From: an uncultured Candidatus Saccharibacteria bacterium
Lineage (GTDB): Bacteria; Patescibacteriota; Minisyncoccia; Phycocordibacterales; PALSA-1337
Assembly: GCA_964470105.1 (NCBI GenBank)
Contig: CAYXZI010000001.1
Span: 37,521-101,520, forward strand
Reading direction: 5' to 3'
DNA length: 64,000 nucleotides
Position 1 is the first letter of the stretch. Every line of letters begins with the position of its first letter. The notes beneath the pieces were generated by a model. That model searched no databases. It worked only from the letters and a program-made list of their open reading frames with translations, and was not told where the DNA came from. A program made the position numbers and the translations under genes. Below are positions 5,576-52,693 of this stretch, in pieces.

Positions 5576-6236
5576 AAAAGTGGAATAGGTATTTGAATGT
5601 TATTTTTAGAGTACCCTCTTGCTTAAACCTTCTTGCAGAAGTTTTCATCTGTAGCTTTTTATCAAAAATCACCTTACCAAATTTAGATACCCTTTTCGCG
5701 GTATCTGTATCTTCACCATAGAAAACTAGTTTAGTGTTATATCCCCCTGCTTTTTTTATAATATCTGCCCGTATAAAATTATTACCACCAATAAGGACAG
5801 CTCCGTGTTTTGTAGACTGAATAATTAAATTCATCAAATGATATATATGTTTCTGAGTAAAGAGAGATACAAATCTAAATACCCTATCTCCATCATGGTA
5901 GTCATATGGCCCAGTTACAGCAACAATACCCTCTTTAAAATTATTTACACCCCTAGATAGCCAGTCTTTATCTGGCAAACAATCAGCATCAATATTTACA
6001 ATTATCTCTCCAGATGCATTCAGTCTTCCACACTCACGCGCCCAAAGAAGTCCTTTACGTGATTCTTTTACAACTTTAATTGGAAATTGTTTAGCGACTT
6101 CATATGTTTTATCCGCACTAGCATTATCAACGACAATTACTTCGAAATCTTGATAGTCCTGAGCTAGAACTGCTTTTATAGTGTTAGCTATACTTTTTTC
6201 TTCATTATGCGCTGGTATGACTACGGATAGTTTCAT
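5553..6236 (-). CDS. Family 2 glycosyltransferase
   Basis: N-terminal VVIPAHNEE, then DNASAD and DAD motifs (GT-A fold). Confidence 0.75.
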   Translation of the reverse strand: MKLSVVIPAHNEEKSIANTIKAVLAQDYQDFEVIVVDNASADKTYEVAKQFPIKVVKESRKGLLWARECGRLNASGEIIVNIDADCLPDKDWLSRGVNNFKEGIVAVTGPYDYHDGDRVFRFVSLFTQKHIYHLMNLIIQSTKHGAVLIGGNNFIRADIIKKAGGYNTKLVFYGEDTDTAKRVSKFGKVIFDKKLQMKTSARRFKQEGTLKITFKYLFHFFKIVLGG

Positions 6237-6317
6237 ATATATGCATCATTATATTACATAGTTTTATTAAAATATGTAATTTGACTAACACGATATCACA
6301 TGTTTATATGTTATTAG

Positions 6318-6923
6318 ATGAACACGCAAGTTTTTGCCCTCATGTACATGGTGGGCATGATCGGTCTAACAATCCTACAAGGATACCTATCCTACGTAGG
6401 AAAAGCTTTCTTCGCCCGACAAATGCGAAGGAAGTACGAAAACTTCCTACCATTTACATGGCACTTCGGTGCAAGTTATGGGGATATGCTAATTGTGACC
6501 CCGGTCACAACATGCATGATATGGAAGTATGGTTCGCAATGGCAAGAAAAAACACTGGCTGTTTTTTGCGCCATTACAACCAGCATTATCTTTCACAGAC
6601 TCTGGAGTCGCGACAAAACTCCAGGCTGTCTCATACGTAAACAGCGACTAACTGCTGCTGGTTACGTCCATGTAATATACATGGGTCTATCACTGATCCC
6701 AATACTCAGCTTCTATTTCCAAACTACAACAACTGACGCAAGTTTTGTAGTTACAGTATCCAGTCTTCTAGGACTGCATGTATTTATCGGAAGTCACATG
6801 CTCTTGAGCATAATTAATCCGATAGGTTGGAAGAGTAATCTACGTGATTACCAATCTTGGATTATTGTGACTTGTTGCTGGTTGGCCTTGGTAGTAAGGT
6901 CATATCAGATGATCAACAAATGA
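6318..6923 (+). CDS. Hypothetical multi-TM membrane protein with atypically high GC and atypical codon usage
   Basis: 201-aa ORF with about 5 predicted TM helices. It uses CTA, CTC, TTC and TAC where flanking genes use TTA, TTT and TAT. No recognisable family. Confidence 0.5.
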   Translation: MNTQVFALMYMVGMIGLTILQGYLSYVGKAFFARQMRRKYENFLPFTWHFGASYGDMLIVTPVTTCMIWKYGSQWQEKTLAVFCAITTSIIFHRLWSRDKTPGCLIRKQRLTAAGYVHVIYMGLSLIPILSFYFQTTTTDASFVVTVSSLLGLHVFIGSHMLLSIINPIGWKSNLRDYQSWIIVTCCWLALVVRSYQMINK

Positions 6924-7669: not shown

Positions 7670-8265
7670 ATTTCTAAATGTTCAATTCTATTTTTTAAAT
7701 AATTCTTATATCCAAGAAATGCCGCCACGATTATTAAGAAGAAAGCTACTATTCCAACCTTACTTAAAACTGAATCTACTTGCATGTATAAATTACTGAA
7801 GAAATATCCAACCCCAATTAGTATTCCAGACCAAATGAACTGACCTATTAAGTTTACAGATAAGTATTTTACAAATGGTATTCTGACTATTCCTGCCGTC
7901 ATCAGCGTTACCAATGCAAAACCAAAGCCATTACTTATTTTGGAAACAAAAAGAATCTTATACTTATGATTATGAAAGATTCTATTAATAATACTAACTT
8001 TATCTTCCGTTATACTCACATATTTACCAAATCTAGATATAAAGCCATGTCCCCATCTTCTACCTATGTAGTACCACACAGTATCACCCATGAGATCACC
8101 GATCATCAATGCTGCATATACTGGTATAAAACTAAAATAACCAAGTTTAATTAAAACTCCAAATATCATAGATATAATAGGACCTTCTGCACAAGCAAGT
8201 ACAACAATGATTAGGTATACTAGATATTCATGATTATTTCCTACGTATATAAGCCATTCCTGCAT
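7666..8265 (-). CDS. DedA / VTT-domain (SNARE-associated) membrane protein
   Basis: Multi-TM protein with a DedA-like core (GRRWGHGFISRFGKY, FVSKISNGFGF). Confidence 0.7.
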   Translation of the reverse strand: MQEWLIYVGNNHEYLVYLIIVVLACAEGPIISMIFGVLIKLGYFSFIPVYAALMIGDLMGDTVWYYIGRRWGHGFISRFGKYVSITEDKVSIINRIFHNHKYKILFVSKISNGFGFALVTLMTAGIVRIPFVKYLSVNLIGQFIWSGILIGVGYFFSNLYMQVDSVLSKVGIVAFFLIIVAAFLGYKNYLKNRIEHLEI

Positions 8266-8926: not shown

Positions 8927-10117
8927 TGCTTTACCCTTCTTATTTGCTCGTCCTGTTCTACCTATCCTGTGTATATAGTCATCGTATGTAGCTGGTATAT
9001 CAAAGTTTATAACATGACTAACGTCAGGTATATCCAATCCCCTTGCAGCCACGTCTGTAGCGACTAGTATTTGTACTTGATTCTCTTTAAAACCTTTTAG
9101 CGCTCTTTGTCTTTGACTGTGATTCTTATCACCATGTATTGATTCAGCCTTAAAACCCTTAGCAATCAGTGCTTTTGATAGTTTCTCTACACCATGTTTA
9201 GTTCTACCGAAGATTATAACCTTATTAAAATCCTCCTTAGAAAGAAGCTCACCCAAAACATCTATTTTATTTAATCCTCTAGCAACCCTCACAATATCTT
9301 GTTCAATATTCTTTGATGTATCTCTAGTCTTTACTGATATTCTAACTGGCTCAGTTAAAAATTCACCTATCATTTTTTCAATTTCTGGAGAAATAGTTGC
9401 AGAGAAAAATAGTGTATGTCGAGGTTTAGGCATACCAGCCATTAGATATCTCATATCGTTTACGAATCCCATATCTAGCATACGATCAGCTTCATCCAAC
9501 ACAATTGTTGAGAATTGATTAAGAACAATTGCCTTTCTTTCGATTAGGTCTTTTAGTCGTCCTGGTGTACCTATAATAAACTCATTTACATATCTAAGTT
9601 CAGACAACTGTTTACCAATGTATGCTCCTCCAACACAACAAACTGAGAAGATTTTCATTCCCTTAGTAAAACCGATTAATTCATTCTGTATTTGTATAGC
9701 CAATTCTCTTGTTGGAACAACAATGAGTATCTTATTTTTCCTATTCTTCAAAACCTTATCAATTAAAGGGATAAGAAAAGCCGCAGTCTTACCTGTTCCT
9801 GTATTTGCAATACCAACAATATCTTGACCCTTAAGTATATGAGGAATTGATCTGTCTTGAATTGGAGTTGGAAGTTTGTATCCTTTTCCTATAATTGTAG
9901 ATTTTAATGTTTCTTCAATATGAAAATCAGCAAATGCATGTTCTGGAACAAAGTGCTCAACCTCTTCAGTTATAGTTGCTTTGTTTATAAAACGAGCATG
10001 AGAAATATTCTCACCCTGTGAGCCTCTATTATTAGTTCTTCTATTGTTATTAAATCGAGCAGGAGGTCGGTTACTAAATCTACCCTGTGGTCGAGAATTC
10101 GAATTATTTCTGTACAT
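8909..10117 (-). CDS. DEAD-box ATP-dependent RNA helicase
   Basis: Q-motif region, GTGKT (motif I), DEAD (VLDEADRM), SAT, HRIGRTGR; N-terminal R/N-rich low-complexity tail. Confidence 0.85.
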   Translation of the reverse strand: MYRNNSNSRPQGRFSNRPPARFNNNRRTNNRGSQGENISHARFINKATITEEVEHFVPEHAFADFHIEETLKSTIIGKGYKLPTPIQDRSIPHILKGQDIVGIANTGTGKTAAFLIPLIDKVLKNRKNKILIVVPTRELAIQIQNELIGFTKGMKIFSVCCVGGAYIGKQLSELRYVNEFIIGTPGRLKDLIERKAIVLNQFSTIVLDEADRMLDMGFVNDMRYLMAGMPKPRHTLFFSATISPEIEKMIGEFLTEPVRISVKTRDTSKNIEQDIVRVARGLNKIDVLGELLSKEDFNKVIIFGRTKHGVEKLSKALIAKGFKAESIHGDKNHSQRQRALKGFKENQVQILVATDVAARGLDIPDVSHVINFDIPATYDDYIHRIGRTGRANKKGKALTFVE

Positions 10118-10186: not shown

Positions 10187-11074
10187 ATGATATTAAATTT
10201 ACTTAAGAAACATAGTCTATTAGCCCTAGCTATGATAATAGTAGCACTTTCTATTCTTAGCTATATAAGTATATACAAGGTATCAAACCATGTATATTCA
10301 CTAGAGCAGAGTCTTGCTTCCACAACAGAACAATTAAAGGCAGAGATATCTAAAAACAAGGAAAATTCAACAAATGATGTATACCAACTAAGGCAAAATG
10401 TTAGCGCCATTGAAAAGAAGCTTGGTGTATACAAAGAAGAGGTTGGTAACTTTTCAGATACCGTGACAACACTGCAGAAATTAAGCAAGACAGATCCTGA
10501 ACTTCTGGCAAAATATTCGAAAATATTTTTTCTAAACGAAAACTATGCACCATCTAGACTAACTGAGGTTCCAAAAGAATATACATACTCAGATTCAAAA
10601 ATATTAAAGGTGCACAACATGGTTTGGCCTAAATTAGAAGACATGATTATTGCAGCAAAAGATAGTGGGGTCGAAATTTATGTATTTTCAGCATATAGAT
10701 CTTTTAATGAGCAGCAGGCCCTTAAGCAGGATTACAAGGTTATATACGGAGCTGGTACTGCAAACCAATTTTCTGCTGATCAGGGGTACTCAGAACATCA
10801 ATTGGGTACAACAGTGGATTTAATAACTCCAGGTATTGGTGGTGAACTTGATGGCTTTGAAAACACAAAAGCATTTACCTGGCTTAACGCAAATGCGTAC
10901 AAATACGGATTCATACTTTCATATCCGAAGAATAATAAGTTTTATGTGTATGAACCATGGCATTGGAGATTTGTTGGTATTAAGCTAGCAAAATATCTGC
11001 ACAATAAAGGTAAGAATTTCTACGATATGGATCAACGCGATATTGATGAATACCTGGTTTCAATCTTTGATTAA
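10187..11074 (+). CDS. VanY-like D-alanyl-D-alanine carboxypeptidase (peptidase M15B), membrane-anchored
   Basis: N-terminal TM segment and a coiled-coil region; SEHQLGTTVDL, YEPWHWRF (M15 metal-binding signatures). Confidence 0.7.
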   Translation: MILNLLKKHSLLALAMIIVALSILSYISIYKVSNHVYSLEQSLASTTEQLKAEISKNKENSTNDVYQLRQNVSAIEKKLGVYKEEVGNFSDTVTTLQKLSKTDPELLAKYSKIFFLNENYAPSRLTEVPKEYTYSDSKILKVHNMVWPKLEDMIIAAKDSGVEIYVFSAYRSFNEQQALKQDYKVIYGAGTANQFSADQGYSEHQLGTTVDLITPGIGGELDGFENTKAFTWLNANAYKYGFILSYPKNNKFYVYEPWHWRFVGIKLAKYLHNKGKNFYDMDQRDIDEYLVSIFD

Positions 11075-26586: not shown

Positions 26587-27144
26587 TTAAATTCCCATCT
26601 CCTCCAATATTTGAGGTAATTCTTCAAAACCATCTTTAGCCGTAAGATGTCCGCCTCTTGGTATCACTAGAGTATTTGTAACGAATTTTCCAAATTTCTC
26701 CCTATTCTCCTCAAAACAATCGAAAGGATCATCATCTGAAATGATCAGGGTTGATTTTGGTAAGACTGCTTTTATTTTTACTAGATCAATTGGGGTCTTA
26801 ATCCAAGGTTCCGCAATTCTCTCTATTTCTACATCTTCCATGTTTTTTAAATTAAACCAACCTGCTACGAAGATAGCTCCACCAACCTTAACATTTATTT
26901 TTTCCAAGTAACGCAATATAGTTTGGCAACCAATACTATGTCCGACAAAATATGTATCGGAATTTGCTTCACCAACAATACTTTCAAGATGACTTACCCA
27001 TTTTTCAATAACAGGAACTTCGGTATCTGGCATTGAAGGGATTACTACCACATACCCCAACTTTTCTAATTCGACTTTTAACCAAGGTCTCCAATCATCA
27101 GTAGGGCCACCGGACCAACGATGCACGATTATTACTCTTTTCAT
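26587..27144 (-). CDS. Alpha/beta hydrolase, RBBP9/YdeN-like serine hydrolase
   Basis: GHSIGC nucleophile elbow; ~185 aa, as in DUF1234/RBBP9 family members. Confidence 0.6.
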   Translation of the reverse strand: MKRVIIVHRWSGGPTDDWRPWLKVELEKLGYVVVIPSMPDTEVPVIEKWVSHLESIVGEANSDTYFVGHSIGCQTILRYLEKINVKVGGAIFVAGWFNLKNMEDVEIERIAEPWIKTPIDLVKIKAVLPKSTLIISDDDPFDCFEENREKFGKFVTNTLVIPRGGHLTAKDGFEELPQILEEMGI

Positions 27145-27172
27145 TTCTCTATATTAACATATTTTATCACTA

Positions 27173-27201
27173 TTGACATATAGTGTAGAATGTGCTACTA
27201 T
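27173..27201 (+). promoter_or_regulatory. Sigma70-type promoter (TTGACA, 17-nt spacer, TGcTACTAT extended -10)
   Basis: TTGACA at 27173-27178, a 17-nt spacer, TACTAT at 27196-27201 preceded by TG at 27193-27194; it drives the GC-rich ORF 27272..27790. Confidence 0.5.
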
Positions 27202-27271
27202 ATACAACGGTGGGCTGGAACGGATTAGTTCTGGCAAGTAAACAAACGACGAAAACCAAATTGGTTAAGTT

Positions 27272-27790
27272 ATGAACATTGTAAATGCGATGCGCATCGC
27301 TAATCGCGCCAAAACACTCAGTGGCGGAAGAAACTACGCCCTCGCGAACATCTTGTTCGCAGCCGTGCTGGAAGTAGTCTTCACCCAGAGGTCAGCGGGG
27401 ACATGGTGTGTTCCTGTCTCGAACCTGGAAAAGGAGGGGGTGACCACAGAGGTTGTCCTGGAAACCCAAGACACCACTGGGGCATGCCATCGTGAAGCCT
27501 ACTATGACCTCTTGGTCGTGGAGTGCCTCAATAAGGAGGGGATCCTTGAAGGGTCGCTGTGCATCCCGTTGCCACTTTTGGATCCTCTCACCCTTGGGGG
27601 TTTGCTCAAAAAAGTTACGATAGGTGCTAAGAGGGACCACGATCGAGATTTTGAGGTGGATAACGCTGAACTTCTCACCCTCTGGGACAGAGTGCTCAGT
27701 GAGATTGATCCGGGGACTCTCCTGGATCTGGCGACAAGCCACCTCACTCCAAAAGCCATGGAGGCTATGGTTGAGGTAATCCCAGTATAA
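27272..27790 (+). CDS. Hypothetical protein encoded in a high-GC island (possible foreign origin)
   Basis: 172-aa ORF spanning a ~55% GC block inside an AT-rich genome; codons favour GC-ending triplets; own promoter and terminator; no recognisable domain. Confidence 0.45.
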   Translation: MNIVNAMRIANRAKTLSGGRNYALANILFAAVLEVVFTQRSAGTWCVPVSNLEKEGVTTEVVLETQDTTGACHREAYYDLLVVECLNKEGILEGSLCIPLPLLDPLTLGGLLKKVTIGAKRDHDRDFEVDNAELLTLWDRVLSEIDPGTLLDLATSHLTPKAMEAMVEVIPV

Positions 27791-27811
27791 TGGTCATGTG
27801 ATCAAGACTCC

Positions 27812-27850
27812 CCCGTCGAACGAGAAAACTCGATCGGCGGGTTTTCTTTT
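27812..27850 (+). terminator. Rho-independent terminator
   Basis: CCCGTCGAACGAG-AAAA-CTCGATCGGCGGG (13-bp stem, 2 mismatches) followed by TTTTCTTTT. Confidence 0.6.
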
Positions 27851-27852
27851 AC

Positions 27853-28662
27853 CTATTTCCCCAACACATCCTTCTTGTAGTGTTTAAGATACGCTACGAT
27901 TATAAAGCTAATAATTACCATTAGAAACCATGAAGTAATCTTGTTTGTAGAAACTACAGTCCATGCATGTATTTGATCTGGATATTTCCAAGCACCAAGA
28001 TATGTTGATATATTCTCTGCAATCCAAATGAAGAAAGCAATGAGAATGAAGGATATATTTAAATACATGGTTCGTACTGTATTAATGACAGTGAAATGTA
28101 CCTTGGTTTTAAGGAAAAGAACAAAGACTGCAATAATTAGAAATATTCTAAAGTCATAGATATAGTGATTGGTAAAGAAATTTATATATATCAAAGCACA
28201 CAGTACCACACTCAATACATACCTATCATAGTTCTCCAACTTCAATTTAAATATCTTCCATGCCTGACTGATATAGCTCCCCACTGCTGCATACATAAAT
28301 CCGCTATACAGTGGTACTGTAGAGATTTTGAAAAATGCATCTTCAGGATAGCTCCATGAACCTACCATAGGACTGGTTTTGTATATCTCTAAGACAAGCC
28401 CAATGATGTGAAAGAGAAATATAACCTTAACCTCATCCTTGGTCTCAAGTTTTGTTAAATACAGAACAATTTGGATTAGTACTGCCGAAATGAAAAGAAA
28501 GTCGTATCTAGCTAGACCCAATATAGATACATGATTAGAAATGAAAAGAAGAACAAAGAAAGAACCAGCAAATATACTTGCTTGTGCTTGTTTTAGACCG
28601 AAGATTAAAAATTCGTGTAATCCTTTTTTTATATAACTATTCATTATATTTAATATCCACAT
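27853..28662 (-). CDS. DUF817-like polytopic membrane protein
   Basis: 269 aa with about 8 TM helices; size and topology resemble DUF817. Confidence 0.45.
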   Translation of the reverse strand: MWILNIMNSYIKKGLHEFLIFGLKQAQASIFAGSFFVLLFISNHVSILGLARYDFLFISAVLIQIVLYLTKLETKDEVKVIFLFHIIGLVLEIYKTSPMVGSWSYPEDAFFKISTVPLYSGFMYAAVGSYISQAWKIFKLKLENYDRYVLSVVLCALIYINFFTNHYIYDFRIFLIIAVFVLFLKTKVHFTVINTVRTMYLNISFILIAFFIWIAENISTYLGAWKYPDQIHAWTVVSTNKITSWFLMVIISFIIVAYLKHYKKDVLGK

Positions 28663-29284: not shown

Positions 29285-29361
29285 ATATTGATATTAGCAT
29301 TGAAATATTTGGTTTGGCAATTTATATAACCAGTTGCATAAAATATAATATAGATGTAATA

Positions 29362-29500
29362 CACTCAGCGTCCCCCCAGCCGAAAGGCATTGGAGACATA
29401 AATATCCCTTACGGGATAATAGACCGCTCGCAAGAGCTGTCGAAACCTAGCCGGATGTGTTTCTGTCTGCTGCATCATGTGCGCACGATAGGAACCCCGG
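29362..29500. ncRNA. Candidate structured small RNA (GC-rich intergenic island); orientation unresolved
   Basis: ~140-nt, ~55% GC block between two minus-strand genes with no credible ORF. GNRA-type hairpins (GCC-GAAA-GGC; CCC-GUAA-GGG on the other strand). A 6-bp closing helix AGCCGG/CCGGCT is followed by CTTTTTCTTTGTTTT on the plus strand. Confidence 0.3.
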
Positions 29501-30729: not shown

Positions 30730-30731
30730 TG

Positions 30732-30802
30732 CTGCCGGACTTGGAATCGAACCAAAATTTTCGCTTTCAGAGAGCGACGTACTACCTTTATACGATCCGG
30801 CA
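30732..30802 (-). tRNA. tRNA-Gln (anticodon CUG)
   Basis: Hand-folded cloverleaf: acceptor UGCCGGA/UCCGGCA with U1-A72 and a G73 discriminator (typical of bacterial tRNA-Gln); anticodon stem TCGCT/AGCGA with loop CTCTGAA; T-loop TTCGATT. Confidence 0.75.
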
Positions 30803-31049: not shown

Positions 31050-31637
31050 TTATGGATCCTCGATGCCGATAAGTACGGGCCACCTGAAACTGACAGGGTC
31101 TAATCGGTCAGCAAATCTGAGTCGATCCCTATCATCTTTGGCATATGGCAATTTATTGAAACTACCCAAATCACTCTCAACACCGAATTGGTAGAAATTG
31201 GGTAATTCCGGGTTGATGCGGACTGCTGCAACCGCCCTATGGCAGCCGGCAGAGATCAATATCTGACGGACAGCACCAGAGACAATTGTTTCTGACGCAA
31301 TTGCAATCGTCTCGCAAAGTGTGGGGGGGCGCAAATCCTTTGCCCCTAGGATCGACATGACATCCTTCCTTCGAAGAGCACATCGACTGGGTTGAGAATG
31401 ATAGGTGACGAAGTGTGCTTTAAATGGTTTGTGTTCTTCCCTGATGAACATCAAAGCCTCTTCTGAGAAGTCCATTTTCATCCAGAGATGAGACTTGCCA
31501 TCACACCCCAACCCAATCCTCGAGCAACTGTACTGATTGTACATAACCGAACCGTCAGTTGATTTGATCTCAACTGATCCAATGACCGACGCGTTTCTTA
31601 TCTTCATTTTCAAACACGAGGGTATCGTTATCCTCAT
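31050..31637 (-). CDS. Hypothetical Cys-rich protein encoded in a higher-GC island
   Basis: 195-aa ORF, ~48% GC against a ~30% background, with several Cys/His (SCLK, CSRIGLGCDG, CETIAI, AGCHRA). Downstream hairpin ACCCGC-TGTTTAG-GCGGGT at 30994-31012. Confidence 0.4.
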   Translation of the reverse strand: MRITIPSCLKMKIRNASVIGSVEIKSTDGSVMYNQYSCSRIGLGCDGKSHLWMKMDFSEEALMFIREEHKPFKAHFVTYHSQPSRCALRRKDVMSILGAKDLRPPTLCETIAIASETIVSGAVRQILISAGCHRAVAAVRINPELPNFYQFGVESDLGSFNKLPYAKDDRDRLRFADRLDPVSFRWPVLIGIEDP

Positions 31638-38943: not shown

Positions 38944-39825
38944 TTATAGCATACGTTCAGCATCTAAAAACTCATCAAGATGACCCTCAAGTACTTTGTC
39001 AACTTGGGAGGTCTCAACATTTGTTCTGTGATCTTTTACCATTTTATATGGGTGAAAAACATATGAGCGTATCTGATTTCCCCACTCAATAGACGTTGTT
39101 TTACTTATATACATTCCCTTTTCACGAGCGATTCTCTCATCCTCCATTTGTTTAAAAAGTTTACCTTTCAATATATCTAATGCTTTTTCCTTATTTTGGG
39201 CCTGTGATCTTTCTGATGTGACATGTACCGATAATCCAGTCGGTTTATGTACAATTCTGACCGCAGTCTCTCTCTTATTAACATTCTGTCCACCAGGACC
39301 ACCAGATTTCGCAATTGATATTTCTATATCCTTATCAGGTAATTCCATATCAGCGCTATTAGTCTTTTCAAACTTCGGAATTATTTCAACCATAGAAAAT
39401 GAAGTGTGTCGCAATTGCTTAGCATTAAAAGGTGAGATTCTTACAAGTCTATGTACTCCACTTTCGTTCTTAAGAGTTCCATATACATCCTTACCAGATA
39501 TCTCAACAGTGATATTTCTATACCCACCATGATCATTTTGATTTTCATGCACAACTTCCATGCCCCAGCCCCTATTTTCAGCTAATTTTCTATACATACG
39601 ATACAGAATTGAAGAGAAATCCTCAGCATCATCACCACCGGCGCCAGAAAAAATGGTCATAATCGCATTACCTTTATCAAACTTACCTATACCAGACAAA
39701 GCATCTTTCAAATCCTGTAATTCTTTAATCATTCCCTGCGCCTTCTGGGGATTGTTCCAAAAATCAGCTGCTTGCATCGCAGACTCAATTTCTTGTATTC
39801 TATTTTCTGTTTTACTTTTATCCAT
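38944..39825 (-). CDS. prfB: Peptide chain release factor 2 (compact form; no programmed frameshift detected)
   Basis: SPF tripeptide (RISPFNAKQ), GGQ motif ([20 protein letters not shown]), and an RF2-like N-terminus ([15 protein letters not shown]). Only 293 aa; the upstream MGMT-like gene overlaps the start by 8 nt, leaving no room for a frameshifted N-terminus. Confidence 0.8.
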
Positions 39826-40072
39826 TTTGTTCTTTTTTAAGGATTTTTGCCTTTACTAGTACTCCACCACGATTATATCCCCCCATCTTACCATCACTTC
39901 TTATGACCCTGTGACATGGTATTTCGGGATTGAAGTTTTTACTTAAAACCGTACCTACTGCACGTACAGCTTTAGGCTTACCGATCTCCTTAGCTACTTC
40001 TTTATATGTCATTGTGGCACCTTTTGGAATGCCTCTTACAACATCGTATACTAATTCCGTAAACGTTTTCAT
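39818..40072 (-). CDS. MGMT-family DNA-binding domain protein (O6-alkylguanine-DNA alkyltransferase C-terminal domain only)
   Basis: 84 aa; [18 protein letters not shown]...[10 protein letters not shown] has the PCHR active-site motif and the HTH of Ogt/Ada C-terminal domains. Confidence 0.75.
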
Positions 40073-40099: not shown

Positions 40100-40136
40100 T
40101 AAATAAAGAAAACAGCCGGACTATGAGAGTCTGGCT
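40100..40136 (-). terminator. Intrinsic terminator on the minus strand
   Basis: Minus-strand hairpin CAGCCAGAC-UCUCAUA-GUCCGGCUG (9 bp including one G.U) followed by UUUUCUUUAUUU (plus coordinates 40100-40111). Confidence 0.6.
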
Positions 40137-40265
40137 GCGAAAGAGTGTCGGTGAGGGGTTAATCCTGGGACCGTGAGCCTATATACGGCCGCATGCGAGT
40201 TGAGCGGGGTCAGCGCTAGATCTCACAAGGTGATTCGTACCACCTCACCGACGAGAAAATAGTAC
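40137..40265 (-). ncRNA. GC-rich structured RNA element (candidate riboswitch/leader or sRNA) between a TATAAT box and the terminator
   Basis: ~130 nt at ~55-60% GC with no ORF. Outer closing helix GTCGGTGAGG (40146-40155) / CCTCACCGAC (40242-40251) encloses nested GC helices. On the minus strand a TATAAT at ~40268-40273 lies just after the upstream gene stop. Confidence 0.35.
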
Positions 40266-42449: not shown

Positions 42450-42492
42450 TTGGCAATAATATCACAAATATTGAATGGAACTAAACTTTCTG

Positions 42493-42565
42493 AGCCAAAG
42501 GTGAGGATCGAACTCACGACCCCAGCTTTACGAAAGCTGTGCTCTACCAACTGAGCTACTTTGGC
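42493..42565 (-). tRNA. tRNA-Thr (anticodon CGU)
   Basis: Cloverleaf: acceptor GCCAAAG/CTTTGGC, D-arm AGCTCAGTTGGTAGAGC, anticodon stem CAGCT/AGCTG with loop TTCGTAA, T-arm GGGTC-GTGAGTTCGATCC. Confidence 0.85.
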
Positions 42566-42724
42566 CAAAGTACCCCAGGAAAGTATGGGCACCGTTATAG
42601 TTACGGCATGTTCGGTATTAACGTGGAAGCCACTACTCCGAACACTTACCCAGGCATCACGGGTATCTAATCCGCATAGTCTTACTCTCCTGGAGCTCTT
42701 TTATACTAACATAATTATGAAAAA

Positions 42725-42800
42725 TGGAGCCGACGATGAGGATCGAACTCATGACCTCTCCATTACCAATGGAGTGCTCTACCAACCGAGCTACGTCGGC
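42725..42800 (-). tRNA. tRNA-Thr (anticodon GGU), CCA-encoded
   Basis: Acceptor GCCGACG/CGTCGGC, anticodon stem CTCCA/TGGAG with loop TTGGTAA, T-loop TTCGATC, 3' UCCA encoded. Confidence 0.85.
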
Positions 42801-42847
42801 ACAGTGCTAAGAATAGTCTATTTATTGACTTTTTTCAATTAAATTCA

Positions 42848-42880
42848 AATGGCCGCTGCGTCTCCGCTACGGCCATTTTT
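42848..42880. terminator. Bidirectional-looking GC hairpin after the tRNA-Thr pair
   Basis: AAATGGCCG-(14 nt)-CGGCCATTT, a perfect 9-bp stem with TTTTGT following on the plus strand. Confidence 0.4.
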
Positions 42881-42911
42881 GTAATACAGTATTCATTTCG
42901 TAAAATGATAG

Positions 42912-43190
42912 TTATTTCGTTGCTTTTTTCCCAAAGTCAGAAGTCTGACTGGGAAGTGACGTGTTTTCATTACGGTCGTCCCGTAGAAAACACGAATCCC
43001 ATACTCTCTTCTTCACTTTAGGTTTTCTTGGATGAAGTTCCTTCACAAAGTATCCTTTGTTAAATTGACTCGTTTCCCCACCACAGCACATGCTGTAGTT
43101 ACCAAGGGGTGTTGGTGAGCTATACCAGGCAACAATATAGCACAAAACAAGAAAAAGGTGAAAAACCATCAAACCAACCATGATTAGCAT
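42912..43190 (-). CDS. Hypothetical small membrane protein (uncertain)
   Basis: 92-aa ORF with one N-terminal TM helix. Its 3' third contains two strong hairpins (AGTCAGAAGTCTGACT; CGTGTTTTC..TACGG-TCGTC-CCGTA..GAAAACACG), so the real CDS may be shorter or the region may be RNA. Confidence 0.3.
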   Translation of the reverse strand: MLIMVGLMVFHLFLVLCYIVAWYSSPTPLGNYSMCCGGETSQFNKGYFVKELHPRKPKVKKRVWDSCFLRDDRNENTSLPSQTSDFGKKATK

Positions 43191-43245
43191 GACCTCTAAT
43201 ATTTACTTTATATAAAATATACCTCGACACAGCTAAACGAATTTG

Positions 43246-43319
43246 CGCGATTGGCGGGACTCGAACCCGTAACCTCCCACGTGACAGGCGGGTGCTCTAA
43301 CCAGTTGAGCTACAATCGC
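43246..43319 (-). tRNA. tRNA-Asp (anticodon GUC)
   Basis: Acceptor GCGATTG/CAATCGC, D-arm GCTC..GAGC, anticodon stem CCCGC/GTGGG with loop CTGTCAC, T-loop TTCGAGT. Confidence 0.85.
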
Positions 43320-43458
43320 ATTTTAATGAAATCTTCAAAAATCACCCTTTTCCTATCGAGGAAAAGCCTACATTCCTTATTATACATAATTCTGTATAAT
43401 TTCAAAGCTCCAAAGATATTCTCTCTAAGCAACAAAAGACTGACACAGCGAATCAATG

Positions 43459-43532
43459 TGCCGATGCCTGGACTCGAACCAGGGACCTTCTCTTTATGAG
43501 TGAGATGCTCTAGCCACCTGAGCTACATCGGC
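43459..43532 (-). tRNA. tRNA-Met (anticodon CAU; elongator or Ile2-lysidine type)
   Basis: Acceptor GCCGATG/CATCGGC, anticodon loop CTCATAA, T-arm CCTGG-TTCGAGT-CCAGG. The anticodon stem has an A.A mismatch and lacks the three G-C pairs of initiators. Confidence 0.8.
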
Positions 43533-43635
43533 GTTAATTTAGCTTATCAAGAATATAGCAAAAAATACAGATGATTACCAGTTTTAGCAGATTATATGAT
43601 GGCGCCACCTACTAAACTACAGCTCGATATGAGTT

Positions 43636-44346
43636 TTATGAGTTACCTTCCAAAATATACAGTTCATTTTTTATATCTTGAAGATAGGTATCGAGGATAT
43701 TAATTATCTGTGTTTTGTCAGGTAAAGAAGTGATTTTAGTTACACCATTTTTAACCACCAATATTAAACCTTTAAATTTATTACTTGGAAACAACAGTTC
43801 TCCTTCAAGATTTGTTGTATTAATAAGTGTCTTCAAAAGTTGTTTCTCGTCAGTAGATTTTAATAGATTCACTCTAAATTCCTCTAACTCAACTATCTTG
43901 CTTCTAATCTCCCTTACTCTCAAAACATCTTTATTTTTATCTGTAACCTCATCCAATCTACCTTTGTATCTATCAACCTCCCTTTCTAGTATGGCAATCT
44001 TTTCTTTAAGATTTATTATCTCTTCGCGTAGCTCATCATTCTGCTTTGTTAGATATATATTTTGCTGCACTACACCCTCATCTTTCACTATCTTTTCAAC
44101 TATTTTCGGCACCTCTTTAACTACCACTTTTTCAACTGGAACTATTGTGTCCTTTTCTAAAGTTTTATTTATTGGGACATTGTTTGTAATATCTATATCT
44201 GATCGTGGAGCATTATACATCTCAATCTTTTTATTCCAAGTAGTAGGATTCCACCAAACCCCAAATGCAATTCGAGGTATTAATAATATAAATAAAACTA
44301 GAGTAATTGATCTCTTCACAAAGATAATTGTATCATATCGAACCAT
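43636..44346 (-). CDS. Membrane-anchored coiled-coil protein (hypothetical)
   Basis: 236 aa with an N-terminal TM segment, then a long heptad-rich Lys/Glu region (EEIINLKEKIAILEREVDRYKGRLDE...). Antisense ORF 43715..44359 rejected. Confidence 0.5.
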   Translation of the reverse strand: MVRYDTIIFVKRSITLVLFILLIPRIAFGVWWNPTTWNKKIEMYNAPRSDIDITNNVPINKTLEKDTIVPVEKVVVKEVPKIVEKIVKDEGVVQQNIYLTKQNDELREEIINLKEKIAILEREVDRYKGRLDEVTDKNKDVLRVREIRSKIVELEEFRVNLLKSTDEKQLLKTLINTTNLEGELLFPSNKFKGLILVVKNGVTKITSLPDKTQIINILDTYLQDIKNELYILEGNS

Positions 44347-44499
44347 TAAACATATGTGATATGTATGATTGATCTTATAACTTCAAAAGAGGCTTAGAGT
44401 TGATAATATAAACTTCTTCATGCAGATGATAATAACACAATAAAAACCGAAGAGAACACGTGCTTATTGTGTGCGTTTCATAAAAAGATGTCTTACTTG

Positions 44500-44572
44500 T
44501 TGCGGGGGCCGGAATCGCACCGGCAATCTCCAGGTTATGAGCCTGGCGGGTTACTGTTACCACTACCCCGCT
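44500..44572 (-). tRNA. tRNA-Met (anticodon CAU), initiator-like (A1.A72 unpaired)
   Basis: 5' AGCGGGG / 3' CCCCGCAAC gives an unpaired 1-72 plus A73, as in bacterial tRNA-fMet; anticodon stem CCAGG/CCTGG with loop CTCATAA; T-arm GCCGG-TGCGATT-CCGGC. Only two of the three canonical G-C pairs next to the anticodon loop. Confidence 0.7.
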
Positions 44573-52444: not shown

Positions 52445-52693
52445 TCAGCCCGTGACCTCGTATACCGCCCGGAGGTCCTTCTCAACTAGAGCCCTCAATT
52501 CACCCCTGGAGGAGCACACGTACTCCTTCTTGATACCCTCGGGCCAGGCCAAGGTGGCCTTGGTACCTCGAGGCACCGAACCCTCGACTACCGAGTTGAT
52601 CATCTTGTCGAAGACTCGATTTGAGACCTTCTTCTTCCCAAGCGTCGTGGGGGCGACGCTGGAAGCATCCATTACTGCGGCGAAGTGAGACAT
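52445..52693 (-). CDS. Hypothetical small basic protein encoded by a high-GC, GC3-biased gene
   Basis: 82-aa ORF; a hand count gives ~75% G/C at third positions and purine-rich first positions (a genuine coding signature of a high-GC donor); a strong terminator follows immediately; no family recognised. Confidence 0.45.
   Translation of the reverse strand: MSHFAAVMDASSVAPTTLGKKKVSNRVFDKMINSVVEGSVPRGTKATLAWPEGIKKEYVCSSRGELRALVEKDLRAVYEVTG

Follow-up and report, generated by a model that had tools for sequence, protein, structure and literature searches.

A self-contained, GC-rich gene unit of an undescribed protein family, probably acquired horizontally, in an AT-rich Patescibacteria chromosome

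Introduction

When a GC-rich island stands out in an AT-rich genome, it is classically an RNA gene, which is reportedly the logic behind the composition-based screen for GC-rich noncoding RNA (ncRNA) genes in AT-rich genomes by Klein, Misulovin, and Eddy in 2002. Here, we describe such an island in a 64-kb stretch of DNA (contig CAYXZI010000001.1, positions 37,521 to 101,520; the whole stretch is referred to as the window). A block at positions 27205 to 27850 of the window holds one long open reading frame (ORF) of 172 codons, with a predicted promoter upstream and a predicted terminator downstream. Like the GC-rich RNA genes of AT-rich genomes, it forms a sharp GC island, folds asymmetrically between its strands, and appears to have its own promoter and terminator. 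Unlike those genes, it codes for a conserved protein and matches no Rfam family.

Integron cassettes and CALIN arrays (clusters of attC sites lacking integrases) offer a second comparison, as they too are compact single-ORF units that mostly encode small proteins without known homologues and often differ in composition from their host. In two loci that carry relatives of the gene (L090 and L095), neighboring units share intergenic repeats, as in integron arrays; unlike recombination sites, however, these modules look like a terminator plus a promoter and leader. The unit in the window also differs from integron cassettes in having its own predicted sigma-70 promoter and no R''/L''/L'/R' attC site visible by reading. 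An integron cassette was considered and rejected, given this promoter, a 3' hairpin that consists of a GC-rich stem and U-tract without a GTTRRRY core (by reading), and the absence of an integrase within ±10 kb.

The leaders of Escherichia coli ompA and of Bacillus subtilis aprE and ermC carry 5'-terminal stem-loops that stabilize the mRNA. The leader described here resembles them in placing a stable hairpin a few nucleotides from the putative 5' end and an unstructured spacer before the start codon. It differs in that it has no Shine-Dalgarno (SD) sequence, in that its 5' end is a predicted one, and in that a second hairpin, apparently conserved with compensatory changes, abuts the start codon.

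Horizontal gene transfer between Patescibacteria is common, and most individual transfers occur within Patescibacteria (PMC12455944, mSystems 2025). As in the transfers reported there, the gene in the window is a compositionally deviant accessory gene in a streamlined genome of the candidate phyla radiation (CPR), with an apparent Patescibacteria source. In contrast to that report, which does not describe this family, we have no donor-recipient pair, and the gene comes with its own predicted promoter, leader, and terminator. We consider it probable that the block is a monocistronic accessory gene that reached the chromosome of an AT-rich, Paceibacterota-like member of the Patescibacteria by horizontal transfer. 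This is a familiar kind of object; the family itself is undescribed.

Results and Discussion

We profiled GC content in 200-nt segments along the window, whose overall GC content is 0.354. Values reach 0.49 to 0.57 across positions 27200 to 27899, compared with 0.37 to 0.38 at 27000 to 27299 and 0.28 to 0.39 afterwards. The block itself (27205 to 27850) is 49 to 57% GC between flanks of ~33%, and the composition switches abruptly at both ends. An earlier note on this DNA had described a GC-rich block amid AT-rich flanks, and the profile confirms this; its figure of ~55% GC becomes ~53% (0.532) when the coding sequence (CDS) is taken by itself. The block and its upstream signals comprise the following features:

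27173-27201 (+): predicted sigma-70-type promoter with an extended -10 element (motif scan and sequence)
27214-27235 (+): predicted 5'-proximal stem-loop of the leader (minimum free energy [MFE] and centroid folds)
27236-27253 (+): A/C-rich leader spacer, AAGUAAACAAACGACGAA, predicted to be unpaired (sequence and fold)
27254-27266 (+): predicted start-proximal hairpin, AACC-AAAUU-GGUU, 5 nt before the AUG (fold)
27272-27790 (+): CDS of 172 amino acids (aa) with an ATG start (ORF list, homology, codon periodicity, and AlphaFold2 [AF2] model)
27812-27850 (+): predicted intrinsic terminator (sequence and MFE fold)

The CDS has GC contents of 0.60, 0.39, and 0.61 at the first, second, and third codon positions (GC1, GC2, and GC3), compared with 0.48, 0.33, and 0.26 in ten host genes, and its 3-nt periodicity is clear. 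Among non-overlapping ORFs with a length of 90 aa or more (74 in all), it has the highest GC3, about 10 standard deviations above the baseline of 0.257 ± 0.033, which agrees with the earlier description of one long ORF with a preference for GC-ending codons. The product is shifted as well, with 0.19 FYMINK residues (host mean, 0.34 ± 0.04) and 0.24 GARP residues (host, 0.19). Antisense ORFs of 116 and 85 aa are also present in the block, and in 54 of 2,000 dinucleotide shuffles of the block, 173 or more successive codons were free of stops, so ORF length alone is weak evidence. The gene call in the databases (P0001, in NCBI and Logan) is 166 aa long and begins at Met7; we place the start 18 nt upstream, at 27272, because the N termini of the family conserve the motif MNIxxL.

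The evidence that this ORF is a gene comes from its relatives. A phmmer search of 1.84 billion representative proteins at an E value of ≤1e-3 returned 51 hits, 15 of them at ≤1e-10, mostly 140 to 210 aa long and covered over their full length. The resulting alignment contains 50 relatives at 25 to 40% identity, from hosts of 35 to 56% GC, and retains the motifs ANRAK(T/S)I, LANxxFA, LETxDxxG, (E)xYYDL, SLCIPxPLL, KxA, RxxHxR, and LW. Two residues are invariant (D79 and P99) and a further 12 nearly so (K14, N26, E64, T65, D67, G70, Y78, I98, P101, K113, R125, and L137). A word-indexed protein search recovered only the gene itself when queried with the single sequence and just five proteins when queried with the family profile; the family came to light only through exhaustive HMMER searching. 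AF2 modeled the protein with a predicted local distance difference test (pLDDT) score of 90.5 and a predicted template modeling (pTM) score of 0.86 when given the family alignment, compared with a pLDDT score of 37.5 from the single sequence. Given the homologues with shared motifs, the codon periodicity, and the confident model, the ORF encodes a real, conserved protein, and the protein is not an isolated orphan.

No search attached a function to the family. All 51 members gave nothing beyond single chance-level hits (E, ~0.008) against Pfam, PHROGs, PADLOC, and NCBIfam, in line with the earlier statement, correct for Pfam, that the protein has no recognizable domain. Their names in the source databases are all "hypothetical protein" or uninformative. 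A profile search of PDB sequences had a best E value of 0.02, for a short IPxPLL match to a Lon AAA+ module, and fold searches of solved structures and of predicted viral structures yielded no significant hit. Judged from its sequences, this is a conserved but undescribed family of ~150 to 200 residues, so far found only on metagenomic, Patescibacteria-like contigs.

The weak fold hits include ASKHA kinases, the TerL nuclease, Argonaute, and HIV reverse transcriptase. The order of elements in the model, beta-(alpha)-beta-beta-alpha-beta-alpha, resembles the three-layer alpha/beta cores of RNase H-like and ASKHA proteins, as does the placing of acidic residues where strand 1 ends and strand 2 begins. 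We regard this modeled resemblance as only a lead. Two nuclease folds were tried and rejected, with nucleases absent among significant fold hits: the PD-(D/E)xK fold, since strand 3 reads SLCIP without a (D/E)xK motif, and the HEPN fold, which has Rx4-6H in an all-alpha domain, whereas the basic motif here is RxxHxR and the protein is alpha/beta. The 172-aa product is acidic (pI 4.8), soluble, and alpha/beta, and acidity is general in the family (median pI, 4.8; pI below 6 in 44 of 51 members). We speculate that it acts in the cytoplasm and that the conserved polar residues K14, N26, E64/T65/D67, Y78/D79, K113, and H123/R125 line a pocket for catalysis or for binding a ligand, which might be a nucleotide or a nucleic acid. 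A role in a niche, in conflict, or in host interaction would fit better than a housekeeping one, as pointed to by the patchy distribution of the family, its paralogy, and its location in variable islands of unannotated genes.

The predicted promoter consists of a -35 element, TTGACA (27173 to 27178), a 17-nt spacer, and a -10 element, TACTAT (27196 to 27201), preceded by TGc at 27193 to 27195. It matches 10 of 12 consensus positions, as expected from the near-consensus sigma-70 promoter reported earlier, and is the best of seven promoter-like sites within 26900 to 28100; transcription would start near 27207. Similar TTGAC(A/T)-17-TAnnnT sites lie at -93, -94, and -64 from the ATG in the family members of L088, L099, and L091, respectively. 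The transcript would begin with a ~64-nt leader whose layout is the same, and whose sequence is recognizably similar, in the L088 homologue, despite the proteins being only ~35% identical. Its 5' stem-loop, GCUGGAAC-GGAUUA-GUUCUGGC, has 8 bp and begins ~7 nt from the putative transcription start; by analogy, it may stabilize the mRNA. The L088 leader opens with a similarly placed hairpin, GGCUGAAGC-AGAUUC-GCUUCAGG, and the L099 and L090 leaders carry other stem-loops. No SD sequence was found in the spacer at 27236 to 27253, and comparable A/C-rich spacers are present in L088, L099, and L090. The start-proximal hairpin recurs, with compensatory changes, in seven of the eight family leaders examined. 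In an unsupervised MAFFT alignment of the eight leaders, six of these hairpins fall in the same columns. In a hand-registered alignment of seven leaders, including L091, 94% of cells pair and four of five pairs are changed on both sides, although hand registration biases this count toward structure.

At the other end of the unit, the predicted terminator hairpin at 27812 to 27841 is two-tiered, CCCGUCGA-A-CGAG-AAAA-CUCG-A-UCGGCGGG, with stems of 8 bp and 4 bp and an AAAA loop, and is directly followed by UUUUCUUUU at 27842 to 27850. This U-tract stops 3 nt short of the stop codon of the convergent DUF817 gene (27853 to 28662, - strand). A scan of the region with a strict terminator consensus returned 0 sites because the stem has a 1-by-1 mismatch; the hairpin and T-tract described in the earlier note are nonetheless borne out by the sequence and the MFE fold. 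A strong hairpin and T-tract also end the family genes in L085, L090, L091, and L097. Since the unit appears from these motifs to have its own promoter and a strong terminator, it would need nothing from its neighbors. Together, sequence, fold, and GC3 support the earlier view of a self-contained promoter-ORF-terminator unit of foreign composition.

The block sits at the junction between a Ser_hydrolase gene and the DUF817 gene. The latter is 75 to 81% identical to genes in metagenome-assembled genomes (MAGs) of Paceibacterota, Nomurabacteria, and other Patescibacteria, and we propose that the host is an AT-rich, Paceibacterota-like member of the Patescibacteria. An SD-like 4-mer precedes only 1 of 65 window genes, and a TATAAT-like box ends 4 to 13 nt before the start in 21 of 65, compared with 9% of random positions, which suggests that many transcripts in this genome are leaderless. 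The predicted 64-nt structured leader is foreign in type to a genome without SD sites and with many leaderless-looking genes.

Composition and comparison with relatives are consistent with the following scenario. ORF, leader, and terminator would have arrived as one unit from a pool of ~52 to 56% GC that circulates among Patescibacteria, recently enough that a GC3 of 0.61 has not drifted to the host value of 0.26. The near-consensus extended -10 promoter would then start a transcript whose leader combines a 5' stem-loop, an A/C-rich SD-less spacer, and a small hairpin just before the AUG. Translation from this structured leader would be SD independent, and the strong intrinsic terminator would end the transcript.

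The family was recovered at ten more loci. Where a contig is long enough for a judgment (one measures 0.9 Mb), it carries chromosomal Patescibacteria-type genes (PriA, Def, Fmt, UvrB, RuvA/B, NusA, ClpP, and MurB), and two family members are labeled "Patescibacteria group bacterium" by NCBI. Relatives are found on contigs of 52 to 56% GC (L086, L087, and L088), at only 25 to 40% identity, and in the 54% GC contigs L088 and L086 the family is at native composition (in L088, GC3 of 0.75 compared with 0.69 to 0.80). P0003, which is the closest relative, comes from a contig of 53% GC. The higher-GC donor suggested earlier is thus plausible, but the part of that suggestion that invoked a host outside the CPR found no support: all recovered contexts are Patescibacteria-like, and nothing turned up in the phage, plasmid, and IMG/VR collections.

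Several points limit this reading. No donor or near-identical copy was found, and because the best relative is only ~40% identical, the word "recent" reflects composition. The absence of a family homologue from 80 DUF817-anchored loci of Patescibacteria and others is in keeping with a foreign gene, but synteny around DUF817 is kept in none of the 80, so no true empty site was seen. There is no integrase or transposase within ±10 kb of the block; no direct repeats, target-site duplications, or inverted repeats flank it; and no relative was found in INPHARED phages, PLSDB plasmids (tblastn), or three IMG/VR scans. Family GC3 exceeds that of host housekeeping genes in seven of ten loci, and the CDSs of AT-richer hosts are strongly self-complementary at synonymous sites, so GC-richness may be partly selected and not only inherited. 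Lastly, promoter, leader, and terminator activities are predictions, function has no homology support, and the proposed pocket reflects residue conservation.

Other explanations for a sharply bounded GC island must be set against acquisition. An assembly chimera or contaminant insertion would account for the abrupt switch in composition at both ends, and the earlier note had raised a mis-joined assembly. However, the window is part of NCBI contig JACCDG010462272.1 (150 kb), and an identical 710 bp with both flanking genes is present there and in Logan assemblies of three separate runs (SRR10036056, SRR10036059, and SRR10036063). The block boundaries also coincide with functional signals (promoter, terminator, and the neighbor's stop codon). 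As four independent assemblies agree on the sequence and junctions, we discount a chimera altogether. An origin from a eukaryotic host, suggested by the very large assembly accession, was dropped as well, since the record behaves like one from a metagenome and the literature offered nothing. A structured ncRNA, with the ORF as a by-product of high GC, would fit the asymmetry in folding (z scores: + strand, -4.4 to -4.7; - strand, -1.4 to -1.8), the nonsignificant ORF length, and the lack of an SD sequence upstream. Yet SD absence is the norm in this genome, and an RNA gene would explain neither the codon periodicity nor a pLDDT score of 90.5 nor the motifs kept by 50 homologues across hosts of such different GC content. 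Rfam, with its large GC-rich RNAs such as OLE, ROOL, GOLLD, RNase P RNA, and transfer-messenger RNA (tmRNA), likewise yielded nothing: cmscan, run over the whole window with the gathering score or E ≤ 5 as cutoff and over 27050 to 27950 with E ≤ 10, gave no match inside 27214 to 27878, the nearest being chance-level matches to SNORD97 and PinT at the block edges, and ARAGORN found no tmRNA. The earlier alternative of a structured RNA misread as an ORF thus fails, and we consider it extremely improbable. More credible, if still quite unlikely, is that the block is a remnant or cargo of a Patescibacteria-specific mobile element (for example, a miniature island, a decayed prophage, or something like an integron cassette), with the gene serving the element as an anti-defense or defense factor. 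The compact, tightly bounded single-gene unit, the acidity of the family, its occurrence within islands of small unannotated genes (including a distant member among small same-strand ORFs in L100), and the repeated intergenic modules shared by neighboring GC-rich genes in L090 and L095 all speak for this. On the other hand, integrase, transposase, and phage genes are absent within ±10 kb, as are flanking repeats and an attC-like core (by reading); integron cassettes have no promoter of their own, whereas one is predicted here; PHROG and PADLOC gave no match; the IMG/VR, INPHARED, and PLSDB searches were negative; and the four GC-rich cassettes of the window share no sequence modules. A prophage or genomic island was also rejected as a candidate, with metabolic or accessory neighbors, no direct repeats, and no PHROG hit. 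The nearest tRNA gene is tRNA-Gln at 30731 to 30802, 2.9 kb from the block.

The explanation that competes most directly with horizontal acquisition is that the gene is native or long resident and that its GC-richness is kept by selection for hairpins in mRNA or single-stranded DNA, which could make the mRNA long-lived, protect it from RNases, or let it escape Rho among otherwise AU-rich transcripts. The comparison of family and host GC3 bears on this:

Window: family GC3 0.61; host GC3 0.26
L099: family GC3 0.51; host GC3 0.23-0.36
L095: family GC3 0.60; host GC3 0.38-0.44
L097: family GC3 0.74; host GC3 0.43-0.54
L098: family GC3 0.58; host GC3 0.41-0.51
L085: family GC3 0.54; host GC3 ~0.28-0.46
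L086: family GC3 0.74, island 0.7-0.87; outside the island ~0.5-0.57
L090, L091, and L088: family GC3 about equal to host

In support of selection, family GC3 is at or above that of host housekeeping genes in all ten loci and clearly above in seven, and family CDSs in hosts of 39 to 50% GC fold far better than shuffled sequences (z scores of -6.2, -8.2, -8.1, -7.3, -8.4, and -3.7; a fold tool independently gives -9.2). The signal persists when synonymous codons are shuffled (-6.5 to -7.6), when shuffling is local (30 nt), and when codon order is shuffled. Inside the ORF, one near-perfect local hairpin of 8 to 11 bp follows another, at synonymous and variable sites. Copies in 52 to 56% GC contigs, by contrast, are unstructured (-1.3 to -1.7). 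In six of the seven structured cases, the sense strand has more structure than its complement, and the window transcript shows the same asymmetry (-4.7 on the + strand compared with -1.8 on the - strand). However, the window copy is weak: its CDS has z scores of -3.1 (synonymous shuffle) to -3.9, its first 450 nt score -1.8, which puts it 15th of 78 genes, and -3 to -4.5 is reached by several native genes that are AT-rich. The value varies with the null model and with the segment taken, and it does not stand out among the genes of the window. The two properties are also separable, since L091 is strongly structured with a GC3 of 0.43 compared with ~0.40. Furthermore, GC1, GC2, and amino acid composition are shifted too, the leader type is foreign to this genome, and no orthologue was found among related loci. 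We therefore regard selection as an improbable explanation for the window gene, though a better one than a mobile element, and retain horizontal acquisition as the preferred reading.

The hairpins of the related loci extend beyond the family. GC-elevated genes in hosts of 39 to 50% GC have z scores of -5 to -10, an effect that the fold tool independently confirms (-9.2 and -7.4), whereas ordinary neighbors range from +1.9 to -2.6 with one outlier at -3.4. Among the hairpin-laden genes are family members, an NDK gene, and further genes without annotation, and the packed stretches are the following:

L095: 4799-9139
L090: 8001-10573
L097: 8001-8711
L098: 8169-8645
L099: 2527-5257
L091: 6001-6513

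It is possible, though we hold this only tentatively, that Patescibacteria carry a class of self-contained, GC-elevated, hairpin-built gene units, mostly encoding unannotated small proteins, in which the family studied here recurs. If so, RNA or single-stranded DNA structure would be under strong selection over whole ORFs, possibly for extreme mRNA longevity, evasion of RNases or Rho, or a single-stranded transfer intermediate. The dense synonymous-site hairpins would then reveal an unrecognized layer of selection, acting on the transcripts or the mobile DNA of the CPR, and the window gene a young or weak example of the class.

What had been an ambiguous GC island is now a defined gene of a conserved Patescibacteria family. 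Its confident predicted fold, without a structural match in the libraries searched, makes it a clean structural and functional target within CPR "dark matter." It is also an example of how a whole expression unit may enter an AT-rich genome that has no SD sites, which bears on how streamlined episymbionts gain and express foreign genes.

Runs of unannotated small genes surround the family gene in L086, L088, L095, and L098. One MAG contains two paralogues (P0005 and P0027), and L086 contains tandem paralogues. The distant locus L100 was the single result of a metagenome scan with SLCIPLPLL. An unannotated protein of ~266 aa, here called X, adjoins the family gene in L095 (6708 to 7508) and L098 (7166 to 7966) and is fused N-terminally to the family protein in L090 (8001 to 9404; 467 aa). 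The fusion and adjacency hint, in Rosetta-stone fashion, at a joint function, and we speculate that in some genomes the two proteins work together, as neighbors or as a fusion. Two small partners, Y and Z, are found again at some of the loci, and a regulator of the TrmB type is often close by. Searches of Pfam and PHROGs with X, Y, Z, and other genes of the islands gave no significant match, and none of these companions occurs in the window.

The intergenic repeats of these islands take several forms. In L090, a 41-nt terminator is repeated between two genes with 95% identity (9452 to 9492 and 10586 to 10626), and an A-rich leader segment also recurs (7967 to 7989 and 9536 to 9558). In L095, a 22-nt repeat precedes three successive genes (at 5905, 6593, and 7627). 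The shared modules give both islands the look of a cassette array. At the edge of the L098 island (640 to 1918), a gene of PF05635 (23S_rRNA_IVP) lies beside a TrmB regulator and is followed by ~1 kb of gene-free DNA. PF05635 includes the Avd proteins of diversity-generating retroelements, and the region could be such an element.

Additional elements in the window

Three further short genes of elevated GC content are present, as the earlier note had mentioned:

6318-6923 (+): GC-elevated gene, 201 aa, membrane protein; GC3 0.44
31050-31637 (-): GC-elevated gene, 195 aa; GC3 0.51
52445-52693 (-): GC-elevated gene, 82 aa; GC3 0.74

None of the three has a Pfam hit, and the four GC-rich genes of the window show no mutual homology by BLASTP or family HMM. 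A search of the protein database with the 195-aa product found only itself. By reading, the 82-aa gene has an apparent TTGACA...TACTAT promoter, a ~70-nt leader, and a two-tiered terminator, as in the unit described above. The 201-aa gene (6230 to 6923, + strand) has the most structured mRNA of the window (rank 1 of 78), with z scores of -6.7 under dinucleotide and -5.5 under synonymous shuffles. It looks leaderless, as its promoter, TTGACT-17-TTATAT, ends ~8 nt before the ATG.

A GC-rich element of ~130 nt at 40100 to 40262 (-) follows a TATAAT-like box. The helix CGGUGAGG...CCUCACCG closes the element, and a terminator made up of a hairpin and U-tract comes after it. The element matches no Rfam family at E ≤ 10 and lies directly upstream of an 84-aa ORF (39818 to 40072, - strand); its architecture looks like that of a riboswitch or attenuator. 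A GC-rich intergenic stretch (~0.44 GC) at 29345 to 29500 (-), between the AAA_18 and His_Phos genes, is likewise without an Rfam match and may represent a small RNA. Finally, a cluster of five tRNA genes (Thr, Thr, Asp, Met, and Met) occupies 42492 to 44572 (-), and the + strand ORFs at 42561 to 42842 (93 aa) and 43251 to 43499 (82 aa) are antisense to these tRNAs, their GC-richness and structure being artifacts of the overlap.

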